Positions 2,782-9,872 of a stretch of DNA of 47,325 bases are shown in pieces. The stretch is from an uncultured Gammaproteobacteria bacterium (lineage in GTDB: Bacteria > Patescibacteriota > Patescibacteriia > 2-01-FULL-39-33): NCBI GenBank assembly GCA_964558935.1, contig CAZLFP010000006.1:1-47325 (forward strand). Reading direction: 5' to 3'. Under the pieces are notes generated by a model, which made no database searches, was not told the origin of the DNA, and was given only the letters and a program-made list of their open reading frames with translations. Position 1 is the first letter of the stretch; the number at the start of each line of letters is the position of its first letter. The position numbers and the translations under genes are program-made.

Positions 2782-3576
2782 TCAGTTCTTGGCGGCTTCA
2801 CGGCAGATAATCAGGCAGAGTTTAGCCCAATTGACCATCAGCCGGATGTCGTCAGTCGTGTCAAACATCCTAAATTCGATCGCTCCATACTTGGAGATGC
2901 GAATCATGTCCCACCACATACCCAGATCCCGCTCAAACTGTTCGGTTCGAGCTCGCTGGTACAATCCGTGCAAATTGCGACAGGGAATCAGCTGAGGCGT
3001 GCGCTGGACATGCTGTTCAAACAGATGAACACGCTGACCCTGGCTGAAACTACCGATATCCACCAGATGATCGTAATGATCGATCAGGCGATCATAAACT
3101 CGGATAGCCGTTTTCAGATCCGGCATGCCAATTAGAATGTGGACGCTGGAGAGACGCCTAACCATGTCTCGACCGGCTTCAGACAGCCAGTTATTGGCAA
3201 TGTCTAGGTAGCGAGGATGATCTACGATCTGAGTCGGAATATCCGGTGGAGCAATCGGCCAGAAAACACGCTTAACTCCGACCGCTTGTTCCATTTCACC
3301 GGCCATCGCATCTATCTGTTTAATAGCTGCTTCCAACTCATGGCTCGAGCAGGGCTGAGCCAAACGTTCTTCAAAATGACTGACGTTGAATTCCGGTCCG
3401 AAGCAGTGCGACAGGCCATTGCAATGATGCATAACCCAGTCCATAACTGAGTCAATAGCTGGTACAGCTTGGTTGGTGGTTGGGTTAACCAGCTGGGATT
3501 CGCGTTCCCAGCCGATCTTCCAGGCATGATGGGGTTGAAACTGGAATTGTTCCACAAATCTTGTGATCTCTTTCAC
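2782..3576 (-). CDS. short GCS2/amidoligase-like carboxylate-amine ligase (glutamine-synthetase fold), paralog A
   Basis: GTG start 5 nt after GGAGG. KIGWERE, EER, VHILIGMPD and GAIEFRMFDTT resemble the G-x-E-x-E, HVHVG and T-x-E-x-R-x-x-D motifs of YbdK/GCS2-type ligases. About 100 aa shorter than YbdK. GC higher than the flanks. Confidence 0.55.
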   Translation of the reverse strand: MKEITRFVEQFQFQPHHAWKIGWERESQLVNPTTNQAVPAIDSVMDWVMHHCNGLSHCFGPEFNVSHFEERLAQPCSSHELEAAIKQIDAMAGEMEQAVGVKRVFWPIAPPDIPTQIVDHPRYLDIANNWLSEAGRDMVRRLSSVHILIGMPDLKTAIRVYDRLIDHYDHLVDIGSFSQGQRVHLFEQHVQRTPQLIPCRNLHGLYQRARTEQFERDLGMWWDMIRISKYGAIEFRMFDTTDDIRLMVNWAKLCLIICREAAKN

Positions 3577-3707
3577 GACTTCCTCCTATGTTGTTTAAGA
3601 CCAAGGGTGAGGTGTAATTACCTCAGACATATTCTTGATGTATAAATTAAGTTAGTAACTGGTCGATTAACCTAAATTCATTAAGAATATGTCTTAAGTA
3701 ATTAAAC

Positions 3708-3731
3708 AAAAAACTGACCCGGGTAGATCAG
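3708..3731 (-). terminator. intrinsic terminator of the Ile attenuator
   Basis: minus-strand RNA CUGAUCU-ACCC-GGGUCAG followed by UUUUUU (3713..3708), inside the 5' leader of ligase A. Confidence 0.6.
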
Positions 3732-3760
3732 TCGCGCTTGTAAAATTAAGACTAACCAAT

Positions 3761-3814
3761 CTACCTAAGATCAGGAATAATAATGTTAATAATAATTTGG
3801 TTAGCTTGTAACAT
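3761..3814 (-). CDS. leader peptide MLQANQIIINIIIPDLR (6 Ile codons)
   Basis: ATG 6 nt after a TATAAT box; 17 codons containing ATTx3-AAC-ATTx3; stop lies inside an antiterminator segment. Confidence 0.6.
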   Translation of the reverse strand: MLQANQIIINIIIPDLR

Positions 3815-3820
3815 AATTGT

Positions 3821-3848
3821 ATTATACCTTAAATCTGGGACTTGTCAA
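3821..3848 (-). promoter_or_regulatory. promoter of Ile leader / ligase A
   Basis: minus strand TTGACA (3848..3843) -16 nt- TATAAT (3826..3821). Confidence 0.6.
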
Positions 3849-3869
3849 ATAAAATAAAAGGGATATAAT
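3842..3869 (+). promoter_or_regulatory. promoter of the 62-aa gene, back-to-back with the ligase A promoter
   Basis: TTGTCA -16 nt- TATAAT; its -35 overlaps the minus-strand -35. Confidence 0.5.
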
Positions 3870-3896
3870 AATAGCAGGTAGTGAAAGGAGGTAGTA

Positions 3897-4085
3897 ATGG
3901 AAGACTTGCGCAAGAGAACGGAAGCCCAGATTCAAGAGATTTTGGGCGACGACAACATGTGGTATGCAGGTGAACGCTTAGGTCATTCACCCAACCCGAA
4001 CGAAGCGGCGATGCACTTTGTTAATCATGGCGGAGCAGCTGATTTTGCCCAACGCTGGGCAGAGTCGCATCGGGGCGTGGCGTAA
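3897..4085 (+). CDS. small hypothetical protein (62 aa)
   Basis: strong RBS GAAAGGAGG 6 nt before ATG; higher GC; no family recognised. Confidence 0.6.
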   Translation: MEDLRKRTEAQIQEILGDDNMWYAGERLGHSPNPNEAAMHFVNHGGAADFAQRWAESHRGVA

Positions 4086-4138
4086 GCCAGCCCCTTTAAT
4101 AGTCTTGACTTTTTTATGTAATTTAAGTTTAACATACT

Positions 4139-4164
4139 AACTAGCTGATGATAGGCTAGTTTTT
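4139..4164 (+). terminator. intrinsic terminator
   Basis: AACTAGC-9 nt loop-GCTAGTT then TTTC. Confidence 0.5.
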
Positions 4165-4184
4165 CTTAATTTAAGAGAAAGCTT

Positions 4185-4778
4185 ATGTCTGGTTATGGTT
4201 CAAATGACAATGTTGTTCAGGCAATAACCGATACCATAAAGAGATGGTTAAAGGATGATTTGAAATATAAATTTATAATTGGCCTTGATGGAAGAAGTGG
4301 GGTGGGTAAGACCAGTATTGCAAAACAAATAAAACAAAATTATAGGTGGATTGAGGTTGTTCATTTGGATTGTTTTATAAAAAAAATTAATCAAAAAAAG
4401 AAATTTGCAAGTATTAAAAATGACTCGGATTTAATTACAGCTGCTCAATGGTATGAGATTCAAAATTTAATGAAGACTATACATAATTTTAAAAATTCTA
4501 GTTCAAATAGCAAATGTTTAATTGTTGAAGGAATATTACTGCATGATATTCATAACAGATATAAGTGTTTTGATAAAATAATCCATTTGCAATTAAAAGA
4601 CAGTCAGGTTGAATTAAGAAATAAAATGAGAGCTTTAAGGAATTTTCAATCTTTATCTGATTTATCGTATACAGACAAAATTTGGCGAATATACAAACAG
4701 AAATATAATCCAGATAAAAATTCTGACTTAAATATTAATATTAGAATTGTTGACAAATTAATTGACGCCAATAAATAG
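4185..4778 (+). CDS. P-loop kinase, uridine-kinase-like
   Basis: Walker A GLDGRSGVGKTS; extremely AT-rich (12 G+C in 4381-4440). Confidence 0.5.
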   Translation: MSGYGSNDNVVQAITDTIKRWLKDDLKYKFIIGLDGRSGVGKTSIAKQIKQNYRWIEVVHLDCFIKKINQKKKFASIKNDSDLITAAQWYEIQNLMKTIHNFKNSSSNSKCLIVEGILLHDIHNRYKCFDKIIHLQLKDSQVELRNKMRALRNFQSLSDLSYTDKIWRIYKQKYNPDKNSDLNINIRIVDKLIDANK

Positions 4779-4816
4779 GGTGTTATACTAAAGATAAGAT
4801 TAATAAACACAAAATT

Positions 4817-5164
4817 ATGAGAGAAAAAATACCAGGTAGCAATGAGCAAATAAATGTTGATGCAGAAAATCAGGTGGAAAAAGGATCAGGTGACATTAAA
4901 GACCAGGAATATAATTCAATTATGGAAGAAATAGAATCAGCCTTTAAAAAGCAGGAAGAAATCGATGCTAAAGTAGATACTGGCGAATTAACAAGTGAAC
5001 AAGCTCAAGCTGAAATGAGAAAAATTCAAGAAGAAGTCGTTGATCCATTATTATACAAAAGAAGTGATAAGTTAGATGAATTGCTTGAAAATGGCACAAT
5101 AACTCAAGAACAGTTTGATGCCAATACGAATAGAATCATTAGCCCTGGCTTACTGGACTATTAA
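4817..5164 (+). CDS. hypothetical acidic coiled-coil protein
   Basis: long ORF, E/Q/K-rich, no recognisable domain. Confidence 0.45.
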   Translation: MREKIPGSNEQINVDAENQVEKGSGDIKDQEYNSIMEEIESAFKKQEEIDAKVDTGELTSEQAQAEMRKIQEEVVDPLLYKRSDKLDELLENGTITQEQFDANTNRIISPGLLDY

Positions 5165-5182
5165 AAGATTAGAAATGCTTTG

Positions 5183-5210
5183 AAATAATCTCTGTATTAG
5201 AGATTATTTT
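5183..5210 (+). terminator. intrinsic terminator
   Basis: AAATAATCTCT-GTATT-AGAGATTATTT with T run. Confidence 0.55.
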
Positions 5211-5214
5211 AAAT

Positions 5215-5243
5215 TTGACAGATTATAATTCTTAGATTACAAT
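5215..5243 (+). promoter_or_regulatory. promoter of the aromatic leader / pheA operon
   Basis: TTGACA -17 nt- TACAAT, 9 nt before the leader ATG. Confidence 0.6.
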
Positions 5244-5252
5244 TTAAATACA

Positions 5253-5315
5253 ATGAAAAAAATACATACAAACAATTGGTTTAGCTTTTATTTTACTGAC
5301 TGTATAGCCAGCTAG
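5253..5315 (+). CDS. leader peptide MKKIHTNNWFSFYFTDCIAS (W-F-S-F-Y-F)
   Basis: 20-codon ORF with 5 aromatic residues in a 6-codon stretch, stop inside the antiterminator stem, upstream of pheA. Confidence 0.65.
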   Translation: MKKIHTNNWFSFYFTDCIAS

Positions 5316-5342
5316 TTTTGTGTATATTGAGTAAAGAAGACT

Positions 5343-5367
5343 AACTGGCTGAAAGGTCGGTTTTTTT
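5343..5367 (+). terminator. attenuator terminator upstream of pheA
   Basis: AACTGGC-TGAAAG-GTCGGTT plus T run. Its 5' arm can instead pair with 5306-5318 (13-nt antiterminator with one mismatch and one wobble). Confidence 0.6.
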
Positions 5368-5384
5368 AATCATAAATAAGTATT

Positions 5385-5945
5385 ATGAAAATTGGAGTTT
5401 CCGGTGGTCCGGGCAGCTTCTCTGAAGAAGCGGCTGACTATTACTGCCATAAAAATAAATTGGCAGGTTATGAAATTAAGCATTTAATTTCCGTGGAAAA
5501 TGTTTTGCAAGCTTTGGAAAAAGATGAAATAGATATGGGGGTTTTTCCCATTGAAAATTCCAATGGTGGTATTGTGTATGAGGCAGTCTATGCCATGAGT
5601 CAGCATTTGTTTACAATCCAAAATCTGTTTGAAATAGATATTCGGCACAATCTCATTGCCCATCCTGAAGTTAATAAACAGGATATTACTTTAATTGCTT
5701 CTCATGACCAGGCTCTTAAACAGTGTAAGATGTATTTGAGAAGAGTTTGGCCAAAGGTGGAGATTAAGGAATGGGCAGATACGGCAGATTCTGTCAGAGC
5801 GATCAAAGACGGAGAACTGCCCAAGACTGCAGCCGGTATAGCTTCCAAAAAAGCGGCCGATCTGTATGGCATGCAGATTCTAGAAGAAGGTATCCAGGAT
5901 CTTAAATTCAATTTCACCACTTTTTTAGCGGTGACTAAGCAATAA
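5385..5945 (+). CDS. pheA: prephenate dehydratase domain protein (no ACT domain)
   Basis: GGPGSFSEEAA, PIENSNGG and SHDQALKQC motifs; ends right after NFTTF, where canonical PDTs have TRF. Confidence 0.75.
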   Translation: MKIGVSGGPGSFSEEAADYYCHKNKLAGYEIKHLISVENVLQALEKDEIDMGVFPIENSNGGIVYEAVYAMSQHLFTIQNLFEIDIRHNLIAHPEVNKQDITLIASHDQALKQCKMYLRRVWPKVEIKEWADTADSVRAIKDGELPKTAAGIASKKAADLYGMQILEEGIQDLKFNFTTFLAVTKQ

Positions 5946-5949
5946 TCAT

Positions 5950-6690
5950 ATGAAAATCGCAATCGTTGGCTTTGCCCGTTTCGGGCAGTTATGGGCCGAT
6001 TTAATGAAACAATTCGGACAAGTTATGGTTTTTAACCGATCTGACAAAGCTGATTTGGCTCAAGGTATGGAATTCTATACTTTTGACCGATTAGATAAAA
6101 TACAGGAGGCAGATTATATCTTTTGTTGCGTGGCTATGTCGGCCACTTTGGAAACTTTGGAAAGAATCAAGCCTTTTGTTAAAGATGGAGTAGTGGTTAT
6201 GGATGTATGCTCAGTTAAGGTTTTGCCTTGCCAATGGTTGGAAGAAGTTTTTGGTTCTGAAGCGGATCGGATAGAGATTATGGGGACTCACCCCATGTTC
6301 GGACCGGACAGTGCCAAAACTGGTTTAACAGATAAACAAATGGTATTGTGTCCTTTAAATATTAGTCAGGATAAGCTAGACTTTGTAAAAGGTATTTTTA
6401 ATGAATTGAAACTTAAAATTATCCAAACTACGCCTCAGGATCATGACCGACAGACAGCTTACAGTCTGGCCTTAGTTCATTATTTGGGGCGCGGCTTGGA
6501 TAGGCTGGATTTGGATTCCATTTACATTACCACGCTGGGCTTTGACCGCTTATTGGAAATTCACGGTAATGTGGTTAATGATTCCCAAGAGTTGTTTAAT
6601 GATTTGGAAAAACTGAATCCGTACGCTCAAGCTGCGAGACAGAAGTTAAGACAAGTTTTGGATGATCTGGAAACGGATCTAAACGGTTAG
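5950..6690 (+). CDS. tyrA: prephenate/arogenate dehydrogenase
   Basis: N-terminal Rossmann IAIVGFARFG, catalytic-region GTHPMFGP. Confidence 0.7.
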   Translation: MKIAIVGFARFGQLWADLMKQFGQVMVFNRSDKADLAQGMEFYTFDRLDKIQEADYIFCCVAMSATLETLERIKPFVKDGVVVMDVCSVKVLPCQWLEEVFGSEADRIEIMGTHPMFGPDSAKTGLTDKQMVLCPLNISQDKLDFVKGIFNELKLKIIQTTPQDHDRQTAYSLALVHYLGRGLDRLDLDSIYITTLGFDRLLEIHGNVVNDSQELFNDLEKLNPYAQAARQKLRQVLDDLETDLNG

Positions 6691-6709
6691 AAAAACCAAG
6701 GAGGAAGCA

Positions 6710-7879
6710 ATGGATATTCGCAGGGATCACATGCCGCCTTCATTGTTGCAAGAGTATGCAATTAAGGCCGGTCAAGAAGGAGTTGTTAGTTTGGCGATTG
6801 GGCAATCTGAAATGGAGCCACCTTCAGGATTGCTTAACCTAATCGTAGAGTACATTGTCAGAAAAGGCTATGCCCGTTACACGGCAGCGGTTGGAGATCG
6901 AGATGTCAGAAGCAAGTTGGTAGAACTTTTCAGCCGTCTGGGTGTTAAGGATTTGAATGTTGACCAAATAGCTATGAGTCACGGAGCCAAGCTACTGTTG
7001 GACGTATCCATGCGAGCCATGGCTGACATTGACGATGTGGTGATTTGGTTTTCCCCCGGCTATACTTACGGACGAACTGCCAAGCATAACCGAATTGAAT
7101 CCATCTGTTTGCCGACTGCAGATCATGGCTTCCGACCCGATCTGGAAGCTTTGAGCCGAGTGTTGGAGGATTTACCGGCTTGGAAAAAACCGATTGTCAT
7201 CGTTAACAATCCGGTTAATCCGACCGGTTGTGTCTGGCAAAAAGATGAACTTCAAGCTTTGGTGGAAATTCTGGCCAAGTACCGGGCCAAGGTGATTACG
7301 GATGAAACTTATGCTGATCTGGTTTTGGACGGTCCACCGATTACCTGTCTGGGTTCTTTTGATGACATTAGCGATCAAACCATTGTAATCCGTTCCGGTT
7401 CCAAAGAATTAAGAGCTCCGGCTTACCGGATTGGTTACATGGCTGTTCCTTTAAGCTACATGCCAAGAGTCAAGGACATTTTAAACGATTGTGTTGGCTG
7501 TCCTAATCTGTTGGCCAGACTGTCGGCTCCTTTCCTGTTGGAGCATCAAAGGTTCGCTCAGGAACAGTTGCCGGCTTTAAGAGCTAAATGTGGCTTGGTT
7601 GGAGAATGGTGCCGTCAGAATGGCCTGGTTCATGCTCCCATGGAAGGGGCTTTTTACAGCTTCATTGACTTTGATCCGATCTTGCAAGCCAAGGATTTTA
7701 AGGATACGATTGAATTGGCGGACCGCCTGCTGATTGAAGCCAAAGTCGGCATTATTCCGGGGCGAGCTTTCAGTTCGGCTCCCAAGCCGGATTGTGACAG
7801 CTGGGCCAGGATTTCCTTTGCCGGCGATAAGTTTGATTTGGTGGAGGGATTGGAGAGGATTAGCCGTTATATCGGCTGA
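6710..7879 (+). CDS. class I/II PLP-dependent aminotransferase
   Basis: NPVNPTG, SGSKELRAPAYRIGY (PLP lysine context); strong RBS AAGGAGG; GC above backbone. Confidence 0.8.
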   Translation: MDIRRDHMPPSLLQEYAIKAGQEGVVSLAIGQSEMEPPSGLLNLIVEYIVRKGYARYTAAVGDRDVRSKLVELFSRLGVKDLNVDQIAMSHGAKLLLDVSMRAMADIDDVVIWFSPGYTYGRTAKHNRIESICLPTADHGFRPDLEALSRVLEDLPAWKKPIVIVNNPVNPTGCVWQKDELQALVEILAKYRAKVITDETYADLVLDGPPITCLGSFDDISDQTIVIRSGSKELRAPAYRIGYMAVPLSYMPRVKDILNDCVGCPNLLARLSAPFLLEHQRFAQEQLPALRAKCGLVGEWCRQNGLVHAPMEGAFYSFIDFDPILQAKDFKDTIELADRLLIEAKVGIIPGRAFSSAPKPDCDSWARISFAGDKFDLVEGLERISRYIG

Positions 7880-7884
7880 AACTT

Positions 7885-7918
7885 GGTTGCTCCGGATCTG
7901 AAAAGATTCGGGGCAACC
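7885..7918 (+). promoter_or_regulatory. 15-bp hairpin right after the aminotransferase stop (no T run)
   Basis: GGTTGCTCCGGATCT-GAAA-AGATTCGGGGCAACC. Confidence 0.5.
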
Positions 7919-7937
7919 TCATATATAATTTAAAGAA

Positions 7938-7991
7938 ATGAAATATATAATTACAAATTGGTTTTTCTGGACTGATCATCCGGTCGGTTAG
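7938..7991 (+). CDS. leader peptide MKYIITNWFFWTDHPVG (W-F-F-W)
   Basis: 17-codon ORF. Homologous at DNA and peptide level to the 5253 leader (ACAAATTGGTTT, ACTGA). Its last codons CCG GTC GGT TAG form the antiterminator arm. Confidence 0.65.
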   Translation: MKYIITNWFFWTDHPVG

Positions 7992-8014
7992 TTTTTGAAA
8001 TATTTTTTTACTAC

Positions 8015-8037
8015 ACCGACCGTTTGGTCGGTTTTTT
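8015..8037 (+). terminator. attenuator terminator upstream of ligase B
   Basis: ACCGACC-GTTT-GGTCGGT plus T6. 8015-8022 can instead pair with 7981-7988 (8 Watson-Crick bp). Confidence 0.65.
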
Positions 8038-8107
8038 GTTTCCTGGTTTTGTCTTTTAATAGTTAAAAGGCAAAATGCGGCATCAAAAAAATGAGGAGGA
8101 ATCAAAC

Positions 8108-8911
8108 GTGCAGCAGTTCTTGGCTCTTTTCAATTTCAATCCGGATCATGCCTTCAAGGTAGGCGTTGAACGGGAATGTTTTCTAACCAAGAATGGTCAA
8201 ATTGTACCCATGGCTTTTGAAGTTCTAAGCCGGCTCAAGGCCAGTGTTAATGGACGGTCTCATTGCTATGGTTATGAGCTGTCGGCTTGTCAGTTGGAAG
8301 AGAGGACTTCCGGTCCGGTTATTCTGTCCGAGGTTGAAGCGGAATTGGAGCGTAATCATGAGGAGATTACGGCCATTTTAGAACCGCTTGGTTTAAAACG
8401 CTTATTTTGCGGAGCAGCACCCTTTGATGTACCATTGGATGTTTATCCGGACAAGCGTTACCAACGGATTACGTCTGATCAGTCGGTTGAATTTATCCGG
8501 GCGGCCTGTCGGGTGGCGGGTGTGCATATTCTAGTTGGCATGCCGGATGCTCAAACCGCCTTAAGGGTTTACAACCAAGTGATTCGGTATTTGCCTGAGC
8601 TGTTTGAATTGGGAGCTACGCCGGAGAGAATTGAAATCTACCGGCGCGCAGTACTCAAGAGTGAGCGTATTCAACTGTTTGAAGATTATCTGGTTGAAAC
8701 GTCTATTCCACCGGCTTACGCATCCTGGCAAGATTTTTACCACCGGGCAGTGGCAGATGGATTTGATTCTGACCCGCGTCGTTTGTGGGATTTCATTCGG
8801 ATTTCCAAGCATGGTGCCATTGAGTTTCGCACTTTTGACACCACTCAATCGATTCAACAAGTGCAAGATTGGGCCCATTACTGTTGGCAACTGTGTTTGA
8901 ACGCCGCCTAA
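8108..8911 (+). CDS. short GCS2/amidoligase-like carboxylate-amine ligase, paralog B
   Basis: GTG 8 nt after GGAGG preferred over the in-frame ATG 8075. Shares FxFxPxHAxKxGxERE, SHCxGxE, EER, VHILxGMPDxxTAxRVY and IRISKxGAIEFRxFDTT with the 2782..3576 protein. Confidence 0.55.
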   Translation: MQQFLALFNFNPDHAFKVGVERECFLTKNGQIVPMAFEVLSRLKASVNGRSHCYGYELSACQLEERTSGPVILSEVEAELERNHEEITAILEPLGLKRLFCGAAPFDVPLDVYPDKRYQRITSDQSVEFIRAACRVAGVHILVGMPDAQTALRVYNQVIRYLPELFELGATPERIEIYRRAVLKSERIQLFEDYLVETSIPPAYASWQDFYHRAVADGFDSDPRRLWDFIRISKHGAIEFRTFDTTQSIQQVQDWAHYCWQLCLNAA

Positions 8912-8915
8912 ATTA

Positions 8916-8948
8916 ACAGGAGATGATCTTGAGTCATCTCCTGTTTTC
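8916..8948 (+). terminator. intrinsic terminator
   Basis: perfect 11-bp stem ACAGGAGATGA/TCATCTCCTGT then TTTCTCTT. Confidence 0.7.
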
Positions 8949-8950
8949 TC

Positions 8951-8979
8951 TTGAAATTGTATCTTATATATGCTATACT
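8951..8979 (+). promoter_or_regulatory. promoter of the tRNA Pro-Pro-Gly cluster
   Basis: TTGAAA -17 nt- (TGC)TATACT. Confidence 0.55.
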
Positions 8980-8996
8980 CCAGATGTTGCAGATGC

Positions 8997-9070
8997 CGGG
9001 GTATAGCTCAGTTGGCTAGAGCGCTACGTTCGGGACGTAGAAGTCGTCCGTTCAAGTCGGATTACCCCGA
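8997..9070 (+). tRNA. tRNA-Pro (anticodon CGG)
   Basis: Acceptor CGGGGTA/TACCCCG, anticodon arm CTACG-TTCGGGA-CGTAG. Confidence 0.9.
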
Positions 9071-9079
9071 TTGGAATAA

Positions 9080-9153
9080 CGGGCTGTAGCTCAGTTGGCT
9101 AGAGTGCGCGCATGGGGTGCGTGAGGTCGTGGGTTCAAGTCCCGCCAGCCCGA
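9080..9153 (+). tRNA. tRNA-Pro (anticodon GGG)
   Basis: Acceptor CGGGCTG/CAGCCCG, anticodon arm CGCGC-ATGGGGT-GCGTG. Confidence 0.8.
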
Positions 9154-9162
9154 TATGTATTT

Positions 9163-9235
9163 GCGGGTATAGTATAATGGTTTATTATGCCAGCCTTCCA
9201 AGCTGGAGATACGGGTTCGATTCCCGTTACCCGCT
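9163..9235 (+). tRNA. tRNA-Gly (anticodon UCC)
   Basis: Acceptor GCGGGTA/TACCCGC, anticodon arm CCAGC-CTTCCAA-GCTGG. Confidence 0.85.
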
Positions 9236-9312
9236 TAAGTTAGTTTTAGATATCTCTATTTGTTTCATAAAAAGCTATGGATATTAGCATAAATATTGCT
9301 TGACAACCCAGC

Positions 9313-9341
9313 TTGACACATAAAAGGCCTTTTGCTAAGTT
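9313..9341 (+). promoter_or_regulatory. candidate promoter
   Basis: TTGACA -17 nt- (TGC)TAAGTT. Confidence 0.4.
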
Positions 9342-9368
9342 GATCTAATTCTGTTTTTAAAGAATTAT

Positions 9369-9872
9369 ATGGATCCATTTAGTCGAAAGGCTTTTTATTT
9401 CGGAGTTATGGCGCTCTTATGGCAATGGTTGTTTCCGCAATATGCCTGTGCCCAAGCTCCGGATAATCAATATTATATTCAATCCAGCATGCTGGCTGTG
9501 GCTAATTTATCTCAGCCCGAGTTGCATGATCCGCATGCCTATATTGAACCGCAGCGCTTGGTTAGAGCTGAAGATAGACAGCCCAAAAGAGTGATTTGGA
9601 TGGAAGTTACAGCTTATTCTTCCACTGTGGATCAGTGTGATTCCACTCCTTTTATCACCGCCAATGGCTCGCATGTCAAAGATGGTATTGTGGCTGCCAA
9701 TTCTCTGCCGTTTGGAACCAAAGTCAGGATTCCCGGCATGTATGGTGACAAGATCTTCAGTGTTGAAGACCGGATGAACAAAAAATATGATCATAGGCTG
9801 GATATTTGGATGGAAACTCGGCAAGAAGCTAAACAGTTTGGGGTCAGATATCTACAGATTGAGATATATTAA
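9369..9872 (+). CDS. secreted 3D-domain (MltA/RlpA-like double-psi barrel) protein
   Basis: signal peptide ...YACAQA; VTAYSS..DQCDSTPFITANG...FGTKVRIPG...VEDRMN...LDIWM. Confidence 0.7.
   Translation: MDPFSRKAFYFGVMALLWQWLFPQYACAQAPDNQYYIQSSMLAVANLSQPELHDPHAYIEPQRLVRAEDRQPKRVIWMEVTAYSSTVDQCDSTPFITANGSHVKDGIVAANSLPFGTKVRIPGMYGDKIFSVEDRMNKKYDHRLDIWMETRQEAKQFGVRYLQIEIY

Follow-up and report, generated by a model that had tools for sequence, protein, structure and literature searches.

How might a bacterium of the candidate phyla radiation (CPR) adjust the expression of a short pathway that starts from prephenate and yields phenylalanine and tyrosine? The question is raised by contig CAZLFP010000006.1 of a Patescibacteriota genome (assembly GCA_964558935.1), whose 47,325 nucleotides (nt) were analyzed in full and are referred to here as the window. 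Genes for a prephenate dehydratase (PDT), a prephenate dehydrogenase (PDH), and a class I/II aminotransferase follow one another behind a promoter, a 20-codon open reading frame (ORF) rich in aromatic codons, and an intrinsic terminator, an arrangement that the original prediction had read as a leader-peptide attenuator. Leader-peptide attenuation is a textbook mechanism, known chiefly from proteobacteria, actinobacteria, and a small number of further phyla. The evidence gathered here was computational throughout (sequence features, conservation, coding-frame signature, helix covariation, and thermodynamic dependence on ribosome position) and supports, with a probability of roughly 80%, a ribosome-mediated leader-peptide transcription attenuator, apparently leaderless, that would set PDT-PDH-aminotransferase expression by the supply of charged tRNA-Phe and tRNA-Tyr. 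The features of the locus are as follows.

5215-5220, plus strand: -35 box TTGACA (sequence reading and consensus scan)
5238-5243, plus strand: -10 box TACAAT, 17-nt spacer from the -35 box and 9 nt to the ATG at 5253
5253-5315, plus strand: leader ORF, 20 codons and TAG, peptide MKKIHTNNWFSFYFTDCIAS (translation)
5277-5294, plus strand: regulatory codon run TGG TTT AGC TTT TAT TTT, W F S F Y F (coding-frame analysis)
5295-5301, plus strand: region 1, ACUGACU, within the leader ORF; partner of region 4 in the fold without a ribosome
5305-5319, plus strand: region 2, UAGCCAGCUAGUUUU, 5' strand of the antiterminator, holding the stop codon at 5313-5315 (fold, duplex energy, and alignment)
5337-5351, plus strand: region 3, AAGACUAACUGGCUG, 3' strand of the antiterminator, of which 5343-5350 is the 5' arm of the terminator (fold, terminator scan, and duplex energy)
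5355-5362, plus strand: region 4, GGUCGGUU, 3' arm of the terminator (hairpin of -7.7 to -8.0 kcal/mol)
5343-5362, plus strand: terminator hairpin AACTGGCT-GAAA-GGTCGGTT (terminator scan)
5361-5367, plus strand: T7 run, predicted site of premature termination, 17 nt ahead of the PDT start (sequence reading)
5385-5945, plus strand: gene 1, PDT, catalytic domain only, 186 amino acids (aa), no ACT domain (PF00800, 4.8e-44)
5950-6690, plus strand: gene 2, PDH (PDH_N, 8.3e-18)
6710-7879, plus strand: gene 3, class I/II aminotransferase (PF00155, 8.2e-37)

Leader ORF and alternative RNA structures

The promoter (TTGACA, 17 nt, TACAAT, 9 nt, and ATG 5253) and the ORF at 5253 to 5315, which translates to MKKIHTNNWFSFYFTDCIAS, lie where the original prediction had placed them. 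The promoter matched the consensus at 11 of 12 positions and was among the three best in a consensus scan of 3500 to 9500. No Shine-Dalgarno sequence was found ahead of the leader ATG at 5253, and the promoter spacing implies a transcription start at, or about 0 to 4 nt from, the leader AUG, so that the mini-ORF would be leaderless; the leader as a whole is about 115 nt long. The predicted pairing of 5306 to 5318 (AGCCAGCTAGTTT) with 5338 to 5350 (AGACTAACTGGCT) held when checked by hand, its 13 positions including a C/A mismatch (5312/5344) and a U-G wobble (5317/5339), and it overlaps the 5' arm of the terminator as claimed, since 5343 to 5350 belongs to region 3. The hairpin (5343 to 5362) and the T7 run (5361 to 5367) proposed as the terminator are both present, but the description of a stem plus T7 counts twice the two T residues that the run shares with the 3' arm.

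Three features that are expected of a leader-peptide attenuator were found together. The short 5' leader ORF carries a cluster of pathway-cognate codons (W-F-S-F-Y-F in the window), as it does in all 12 distinct short versions of the leader that were recovered from the window and related loci, and because the operon consists of the PDT, PDH, and aminotransferase genes, the regulatory codons match the pathway products Phe and Tyr. An intrinsic terminator separates the leader ORF from PDT, with no promoter in between. Finally, the antiterminator uses the 5' arm of the terminator, and in thermodynamic modeling a ribosome at the stop codon masks the other strand of the antiterminator, while one at the regulatory codons does not.

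The proposed sequence of events would begin at or just ahead of AUG 5253, with transcription from the sigma70-type promoter and ribosomes loading straight onto the 5' end. When Phe and Tyr are plentiful, the ribosome would pass W-F-S-F-Y-F, reach TAG 5313, and cover region 2 (5305 to 5319); the 3:4 hairpin (5343 to 5362) with its U-run would then form, and RNA polymerase would terminate at about 5367. When Phe-tRNA or Tyr-tRNA is scarce, the ribosome would stall on 5286 to 5294 and cover region 1 (5295 to 5301), leaving region 2 free to pair with region 3 (13 to 15 bp, about -16 kcal/mol) in preference to the -8-kcal/mol terminator, so that region 4 would stay single stranded and polymerase would read on. 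With no translating ribosome, 1:4 would stack on 2:3 in one long hairpin abutting the U-run, which probably terminates as a default "off" state. From the features described here we infer where transcription starts, that the mini-ORF is translated, that transcription ends at the U-run, that the system responds to amino acid supply, and that the long hairpin can terminate as well.

Folding of 5250 to 5385, put forward as a check by the original prediction, gave -29.6 kcal/mol, compared to -21.7 ± 3.2 kcal/mol for shuffles (z = -2.4), and a structure more extensive than had been described. The minimum free energy structure is a nested hairpin in which 5305 to 5319 pairs with 5337 to 5351 and 5295 to 5301 pairs with 5355 to 5361. 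Across all leaders, regions 1 and 3 are alike, as are regions 2 and 4. The 2:3 duplex of the window (-16.5 kcal/mol, compared to -6.3 ± 2.3 kcal/mol with a shuffled region 2) was reached by 0 of 1,000 shuffles; the 2:3 duplex was reached by ≤4% of shuffles in 9 of the 12 versions and the 1:4 duplex by ≤2.2% in 10 of 14 leaders.

The consensus fold (RNAalifold on an unguided MAFFT alignment) was the same nested 1:4 and 2:3 structure, with 17 pairs, 9 of which showed double changes; helix 1 (columns 49 to 55 with 118 to 124) had 84.5% of cells paired and 4 pairs with double changes. Over the whole consensus structure, both the proportion of paired cells (85.3% versus 79.9% ± 1.3% in column shuffles) and the covariation score (0.313 versus 0.215) were reached by 0 of 500 shuffles, and sliding the partners by 1 to 3 columns left only 19 to 44% of cells paired. 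Column-wise covariation of the terminator in a single fixed register was indistinguishable from that in shuffles, a test that is uninformative because the stem register differs between sequence classes. A cross-leader energy matrix of region 2 against region 3 split the class formed by the window and locus L081 from the rest, with no clean separation of cognate from noncognate pairs.

Dependence on ribosome position was modeled by masking a footprint from 15 nt before to 12 nt after the first base of the A site at each codon and computing pair probabilities. In 10 of the 12 versions, the probability of the 3:4 terminator stayed at about 0 as long as the A site lay no further than the first aromatic codons, and it was 0.8 to 1.0 at the stop codon; the switch point in these fell within the aromatic run or at its end. 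Only 0 to 8% of shuffled leaders carrying the native terminator showed a terminator probability of ≤0.2. Under a stricter criterion, in which the five bases ahead of the U-run were scored as paired with anything or free, these bases in the window were free in just two states, with Tyr (5289) or the last Phe (5292) occupying the A site; every other state, the one without a ribosome included, had them paired to region 3 or region 1. Several relatives share this narrow read-through window.

Conservation and coding signature in related loci

The closest homologues of the PDT all came from Patescibacteria/CPR metagenome-assembled genomes and metagenomes, with a next tier in Chloroflexi at about 40% identity. 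Among CPR-type loci with at least 200 nt upstream of PDT, an aromatic leader with a terminator was found in 27 of 75. These 27 loci encode 14 distinct peptides, three of which are of a longer type placed about 300 nt ahead of PDT. The short versions, 12 distinct sequences including that of the window, came from CPR metagenomes and share the core NNWF.F.F(T/A)D. The following leader peptides were identified in relatives by scanning upstream of PDT.

L081: MKKIHTNNWFSFYFTDYIAR
L082: MMLQIINNWFFFIFTDRRIS
L086: MKKIVVNNWFFFYFTDPRVG
L002: MIVKINNWFFFFFFADRRIS
L161: MKQARITTNWYFFFNFTGKRSS
L166: MKQSIIKNNWFFFFSRLVRIS
L168: MILSNTNFFYFFTRYLAG
L170: MITRIIANNWFFFYFTGPRIS
L177: MMKIQTNNLFGFYFFTDPRIS
L178: MKQTLITTNWYSFSFFTGKRSG
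L179: MILQIINNWFFFFYFTDRRIS

All 12 versions have a TTGAC-type -35 box at 16 to 17 nt from a TAnnnT -10 box, and in these and both paralogous modules of the window (see below) the ATG lies 6 to 9 nt from the end of the -10 box with no Shine-Dalgarno sequence. The mini-ORFs span 18 to 22 codons, with 3 to 6 Phe, 0 to 2 Tyr, and usually 1 Trp, and in every version the stop codon is part of the strand complementary to the 5' arm of the terminator. All 12 also have a hairpin (-7.7 to -19.7 kcal/mol, folded per sequence) followed by T5 to T7, at 15 to 30 nt from the PDT start except in L168 (79 nt). Mini-ORF and alternative helix, whose absence from orthologous loci the original prediction had named as the observation that should count against it, were thus present, together with the terminator, in 11 further distinct short versions. 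Its core interpretation, an aromatic leader peptide that chooses between antiterminator and terminator, is supported by the conserved frame, the compensatory changes, and the dependence on ribosome position.

The genes upstream of the module vary between loci (Fic, prenyltransferase, HTH/SocA, TrmB, and others), indicating that the module belongs to PDT and travels with it, and its recurrence ahead of an orthologous gene despite the differing neighbors argues against a chance arrangement. On a chance explanation, the hairpin and T-run would be the terminator of the upstream gene (4817 to 5164) and the ORF a random frame in AT-rich DNA; open frames of 20 codons are not rare at 33% G+C, and promoter-like sites were no more frequent in the scanned region than expected from shuffles (17 versus 14.9). 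Terminator-like sites were enriched in the same region (17 versus 5.0 ± 2.4 in shuffles). The upstream gene, however, has its own AU-rich hairpin at about 5186 to 5212, ahead of the promoter, the module is conserved beside PDT in relatives with unrelated upstream genes, and the window contains three modules of the same design, with no others found in a scan of the whole window. A chance arrangement is considered extremely unlikely.

The conserved alternative helices would also be expected of an attenuator in which a ligand, a tRNA, or an RNA-binding protein makes the choice (riboswitch-, T-box-, or TRAP/PyrR-like) and the ORF is incidental, and Phe-rich frames arise easily from U-rich tracts. 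The frame itself argues against this. The ATG frame was open in 12 of 12 versions, with the ATG at a fixed distance from the -10 box and the stop always inside region 2, while the other two frames carried 23 and 21 stops, in 12 of 12 and 10 of 12 versions. Across the 12 versions, 22 of the 27 interruptions of the T-run by C fell at codon position 3 (TTC and TAC) and 13 of the 20 interruptions by A at codon position 2 (TAT), a placement that keeps Phe and Tyr codons and fits the prediction of selection for them rather than for a mere U-rich tract. In addition, the leader is only about 115 nt long without a conserved unpaired aptamer-like core, and it matched no Rfam family and no T-box. An incidental ORF beside an RNA sensor is therefore quite unlikely.

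The peptide sequence bears on another alternative, in which a conserved nascent peptide, as in TnaC, would arrest the ribosome on free aromatic amino acid and so control the terminator, without codon starvation. A conserved Trp, the flanking Asn-Asn with synonymous changes at the Asn codons, and a nearby Asp could be taken as such a peptide, and the Trp codon lies too far upstream for a productive stall in the footprint model. But Gly, Arg, or Ser takes the place of the Asp in step with RNA covariation: in L161 and L178, ACUGAC:GUCAGU becomes ACUGGC:GCCAGU and the encoded Thr-Asp becomes Thr-Gly. Since the Asp codon changes exactly where the terminator arms change, the constraint there is at the RNA level. 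Trp is also absent from 2 of the 12 versions (L168 and L177), the dominant conserved feature is a run of 3 to 6 Phe codons, and induction of a biosynthetic operon by excess product would have the wrong regulatory sign, making nascent-peptide arrest very unlikely.

The same substitutions are relevant to whether a small hydrophobic peptide with a function of its own is made from the mini-ORF, or the terminated transcript acts in trans as a small RNA, with PDT expressed by incidental read-through and no sensing. The conservation of N-N-W, T-D, and a length of about 20 codons, with synonymous AAC/AAT changes, would fit such a role, and trans functions have been described for leader peptides and attenuator RNAs, such as peTrpL/rnTrpL of Sinorhizobium. 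Against it, the T-D segment (ACUGAC) covaries with the terminator arm and becomes T-G, as an RNA constraint would require, and in 11 of 12 versions only 15 to 30 nt without a promoter lie between the U-run and PDT, so that PDT transcription must cross the terminator. A role in trans would moreover supplement attenuation and not replace it. This explanation is judged unlikely.

Several observations weigh against attenuation by codon sensing, or limit how far it extends. The terminator of the window is weak (8 bp including 2 to 3 G-U pairs, about -8 kcal/mol), and the three sequencing runs that matched the window were all DNA, from a microbial-mat metagenome; for the relatives L116 and L171, no RNA runs turned up. 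The module is absent from 48 of the 75 related loci (42 distinct upstream sequences) and is thus dispensable, the 12 versions are mutually related, so that the shuffle statistics overstate their independence, and the conserved Asn-Asn-Trp ahead of the Phe run is not explained by the attenuation model. Within the footprint model, 2 of the 12 versions (L082 and L166) showed no switch, and the equilibrium result is sensitive to the assumed +12-nt footprint. A summary by median regulatory codon was mixed, with the equilibrium switch point shifting by 1 to 2 codons between versions; because of this shift, per-codon scans are the fair view. In several relatives the terminator beats the antiterminator and its 3' arm is never predicted to be free at equilibrium, so that a switch there would have to be kinetic. 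The Escherichia coli trp leader resembles these relatives in this.

Paralogous modules and genomic neighborhood

The two further modules of this design in the window are composed of the following features.

7924-8037, plus strand: module 2, aromatic (W-F-F-W); -10 box TATAAT at 7924-7929, 8 nt, ATG at 7938
7938-7991, plus strand: module 2 ORF, peptide MKYIITNWFFWTDHPVG; region 1:2 hairpin at 7970-7989
8015-8037, plus strand: module 2 terminator, ACCGACC-GUUU-GGUCGGU and T6, 37 nt ahead of the gene at 8075-8911
3848-3708, minus strand: module 3, isoleucine type; TTGACA at 3848-3843, 16 nt, TATAAT at 3826-3821, promoter match of 12 of 12
3814-3761, minus strand: module 3 ORF, peptide MLQANQIIINIIIPDLR, six Ile codons (I-I-I-N-I-I-I), ATG 6 nt after the -10 box
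3733-3712, minus strand: module 3 terminator and T-run, ahead of the YbdK-like gene at 3576-2782

Both modules fold into the nested hairpin when free of ribosomes. Read-through was predicted in module 2 only when F, F, or W occupied the A site and in module 3 on an Ile codon. Module 2 lacks a clear -35 box, and transcription that continues out of the aminotransferase gene may also enter it. A counterpart of the Ile leader is present in L081 (MQYNQTNQIIINIIIPDLR, minus strand, about 265 to 206 in locus coordinates). That one scaffold occurs with different sets of regulatory codons speaks strongly for codon sensing by ribosomes: the exchange of aromatic for Ile codons with the fold kept argues against a sensor made of RNA alone, and the Ile-codon version ahead of another gene argues against a peptide or small RNA acting in trans.

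The genes behind modules 2 and 3 (8075 to 8911, plus strand, and 3576 to 2782, minus strand) are paralogs with 35% identity. Both gave only subthreshold matches to models of YbdK-type carboxylate-amine ligases and glutamate-cysteine ligases (GCS2). They belong to a virtually unnamed, amidoligase-like family of proteins of about 255 to 285 aa, found widely across CPR genomes; a sequence search with the amidoligase gave no significant match in PDB, and neither paralog had a tBLASTn match among the fetched PDT loci. We tentatively suggest that the three modules form a codon-specific attenuation regulon, in which each amidoligase paralog would be induced by shortage of one charged tRNA and would act as an amino acid-specific supply or salvage enzyme, a possibility that we hold as doubtful. 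Induction at amino acid shortage, as attenuation logic predicts, is odd for a ligase.

Several features of the surrounding DNA were also recorded. The PDT start has no Shine-Dalgarno sequence (aaataagtattATG, window 5368 to 5387), as is the case in PDT orthologues; the amidoligase gene starting at 3576 (minus strand) carries a strong AGGAGG (3577 to 3600, minus strand), indicating that Shine-Dalgarno sequences are used in this genome, though not by the leader ORFs or PDT. A 10-bp hairpin without a T-run (GCUCCGGAUCU...AGAUUCGGGGC, 7890 to 7915) directly follows the aminotransferase stop codon, ahead of the second leader; it may serve in RNA processing or stability or act as a weak terminator behind the operon. 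Between the divergent Ile and aromatic leaders lie about 185 nt in L081, an 85%-related contig, and about 1.26 kb in the window (3974 to 5238), where the intervening DNA holds ORFs at 4185 to 4778 (P-loop/AAA_18 kinase-like) and 4817 to 5164 (weakly SHOCT-like) and looks like an insertion relative to L081. The segment from 4001 to 6000 is AT rich (33.5% G+C). No chorismate mutase (CM_1 or CM_2) was found in the 47-kb window by tBLASTn; a CM_2 chorismate mutase lies inside the PDT operon of relatives (L170:2073-2351, L177:1551-1820, and L178:1563-1832).

Other leaders and upstream elements were found in the related loci. The longer aromatic leaders (24 to 29 codons) with a terminator about 300 nt upstream of PDT occur in more distant, Falkowbacteria-like CPR relatives, at L017:2544-2680, L115:2034-2180, and L117:1014-1160, loci whose PDTs are 53 to 57% identical; that of L017 encodes MIKNITKGFYFFWFYFFSKETNLL, and a Shine-Dalgarno-led 57-aa ORF (2728 to 2901) and a second hairpin lie between this leader and PDT. 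Anaerolineales (Chloroflexi) carry leaderless-type aromatic leaders (e.g., MLKSTRWFAFYFYYGFRDSVAVGGA; L065:3940-4068, L072:6126-6257, and L140:3387-3519) with strong terminators (about -21 kcal/mol) directly ahead of an AroH-type chorismate mutase (CM_1, E = 8e-46), and these are probably independent, previously unreported analogues.

Rfam scans of eight relatives without the leader returned tRNAs only. Some PDT relatives without a leader share a TTGACTTTT...TATAAAT promoter (L003:~500-573, L004:~2930-3000, L005:~100-151, L006:~2860-2960, and L012:~2940-3000) followed by a 5' untranslated region of 7-nt periodic repeats of the AAAACCU, UAAUCCA, or GAUUGCA type, which may be a protein-binding array or a translation enhancer. 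In L162:932-1500 (same in L163), of Berkelbacteria type with a 76% identical PDT, a 570-nt G+C-rich, hairpin-rich intergenic region without a match to any Rfam family replaces the leader. On the minus strand of L022 (reverse complement, 61 to 200), a mini-ORF with four consecutive Cys codons (MYMKSFKSQICCCCSIL) lies between a weak promoter-like site and a weak terminator and may encode a cysteine leader peptide of a further CPR genome.

Relation to known leader peptides

The original prediction had likened the layout to the E. coli pheA leader. The likeness stands as functional analogy, with pheL-pheA as the closest named case: both have a short ORF with a Phe run, a terminator just ahead of the PDT gene, mutually exclusive pause, antiterminator, and terminator pairings, and a stop codon near the antiterminator strand. 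It does not extend to homology, because Phe_leader gave no match even at E ≤ 10. The window differs from pheL in that its mini-ORF has no Shine-Dalgarno sequence (with the -10 box 6 to 9 nt from the ATG across versions), its codons are mixed Phe, Tyr, and Trp, fitting an operon that makes both Phe and Tyr, and pairing of its regions 1 and 4 creates a long nested hairpin. It belongs to a CPR bacterium, whereas reports of pheL come almost entirely from gammaproteobacteria, apart from a few in Bacteroides and Desulfobacterium (PMC3082878). The gene regulated in the window is also a bare 186-aa catalytic PDT, and E. coli pheL precedes the P-protein with chorismate mutase, PDT, and ACT domains. The further claim, that the leader accounts for the lack of an ACT domain in the PDT, was not supported: PDTs of 185 to 199 aa without ACT are the rule across the clade, including the 48 loci that have no leader peptide, and leader and missing domain can be said at most to coexist.

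Rfam scans of the whole window at gathering thresholds returned only tRNAs, and a permissive scan (E ≤ 10) of 5150 to 5450 returned only insignificant matches. Phe_leader (RF01859) and T-box (RF00230) were matched by neither scan, and the leader of about 115 nt is shorter than the 200 to 300 nt or so of a T-box. The best permissive match was Bacteroid-trp (RF01692), at 24.3 bits compared to a gathering score of 49 (E = 1.4), and the leader is not a member; that family is also a leader-peptide attenuator with aromatic codons outside proteobacteria.

The architecture can be compared with that of E. coli trpL, for which the Yanofsky model, as summarized in PMC4007540, describes four segments, with 2:3 as antiterminator and 3:4 plus the U-run as terminator. 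In both leaders the codons lie at or just before segment 1 and the stop adjoins segment 2. In the untranslated state, however, the window nests 1:4 and 2:3 in one hairpin, because segment 1 resembles 3 and segment 2 resembles 4, whereas the trp leader forms separate 1:2 and 3:4 hairpins.

Leaderless leader peptides have been documented by differential RNA sequencing (dRNA-seq) in Deinococcus deserti, with 14 predicted (PMC4007540), and described for ilvB of Corynebacterium diphtheriae (PMC5784534); leaderless poly-Cys short ORFs of mycobacteria have been reported as well (bioRxiv 10.1101/834739). Like the mini-ORFs of the window, these are described as lacking a Shine-Dalgarno sequence, rich in the cognate amino acid, and placed ahead of biosynthesis or tRNA-synthetase genes. 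The phyla differ, and the Deinococcus and Corynebacterium starts were mapped by dRNA-seq, while that of the window is predicted from promoter spacing. No Phe/Tyr leader ahead of PDT was found in the accessible portions of these papers on leaderless peptides. No literature report was found that links CPR/Patescibacteria with leader-peptide attenuation, and judged by sequence comparison, the leader appears to constitute a new family within a known class of regulators, in a phylum for which no earlier description was found.

The leader codons offer a free functional annotation, tying the amidoligase paralogs to aromatic amino acids and isoleucine. If the three modules do form a regulon, the leader codons would predict the substrate of each paralog, and the paralogs would represent a new route of amino acid acquisition in reduced genomes. 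If attenuation operates at the PDT operon as proposed, tiny host-dependent bacteria would couple transcription and translation tightly enough for this mode of control, leaderless translation would be used for sensor ORFs, and a partial Phe/Tyr pathway, starting from prephenate, would be actively regulated.

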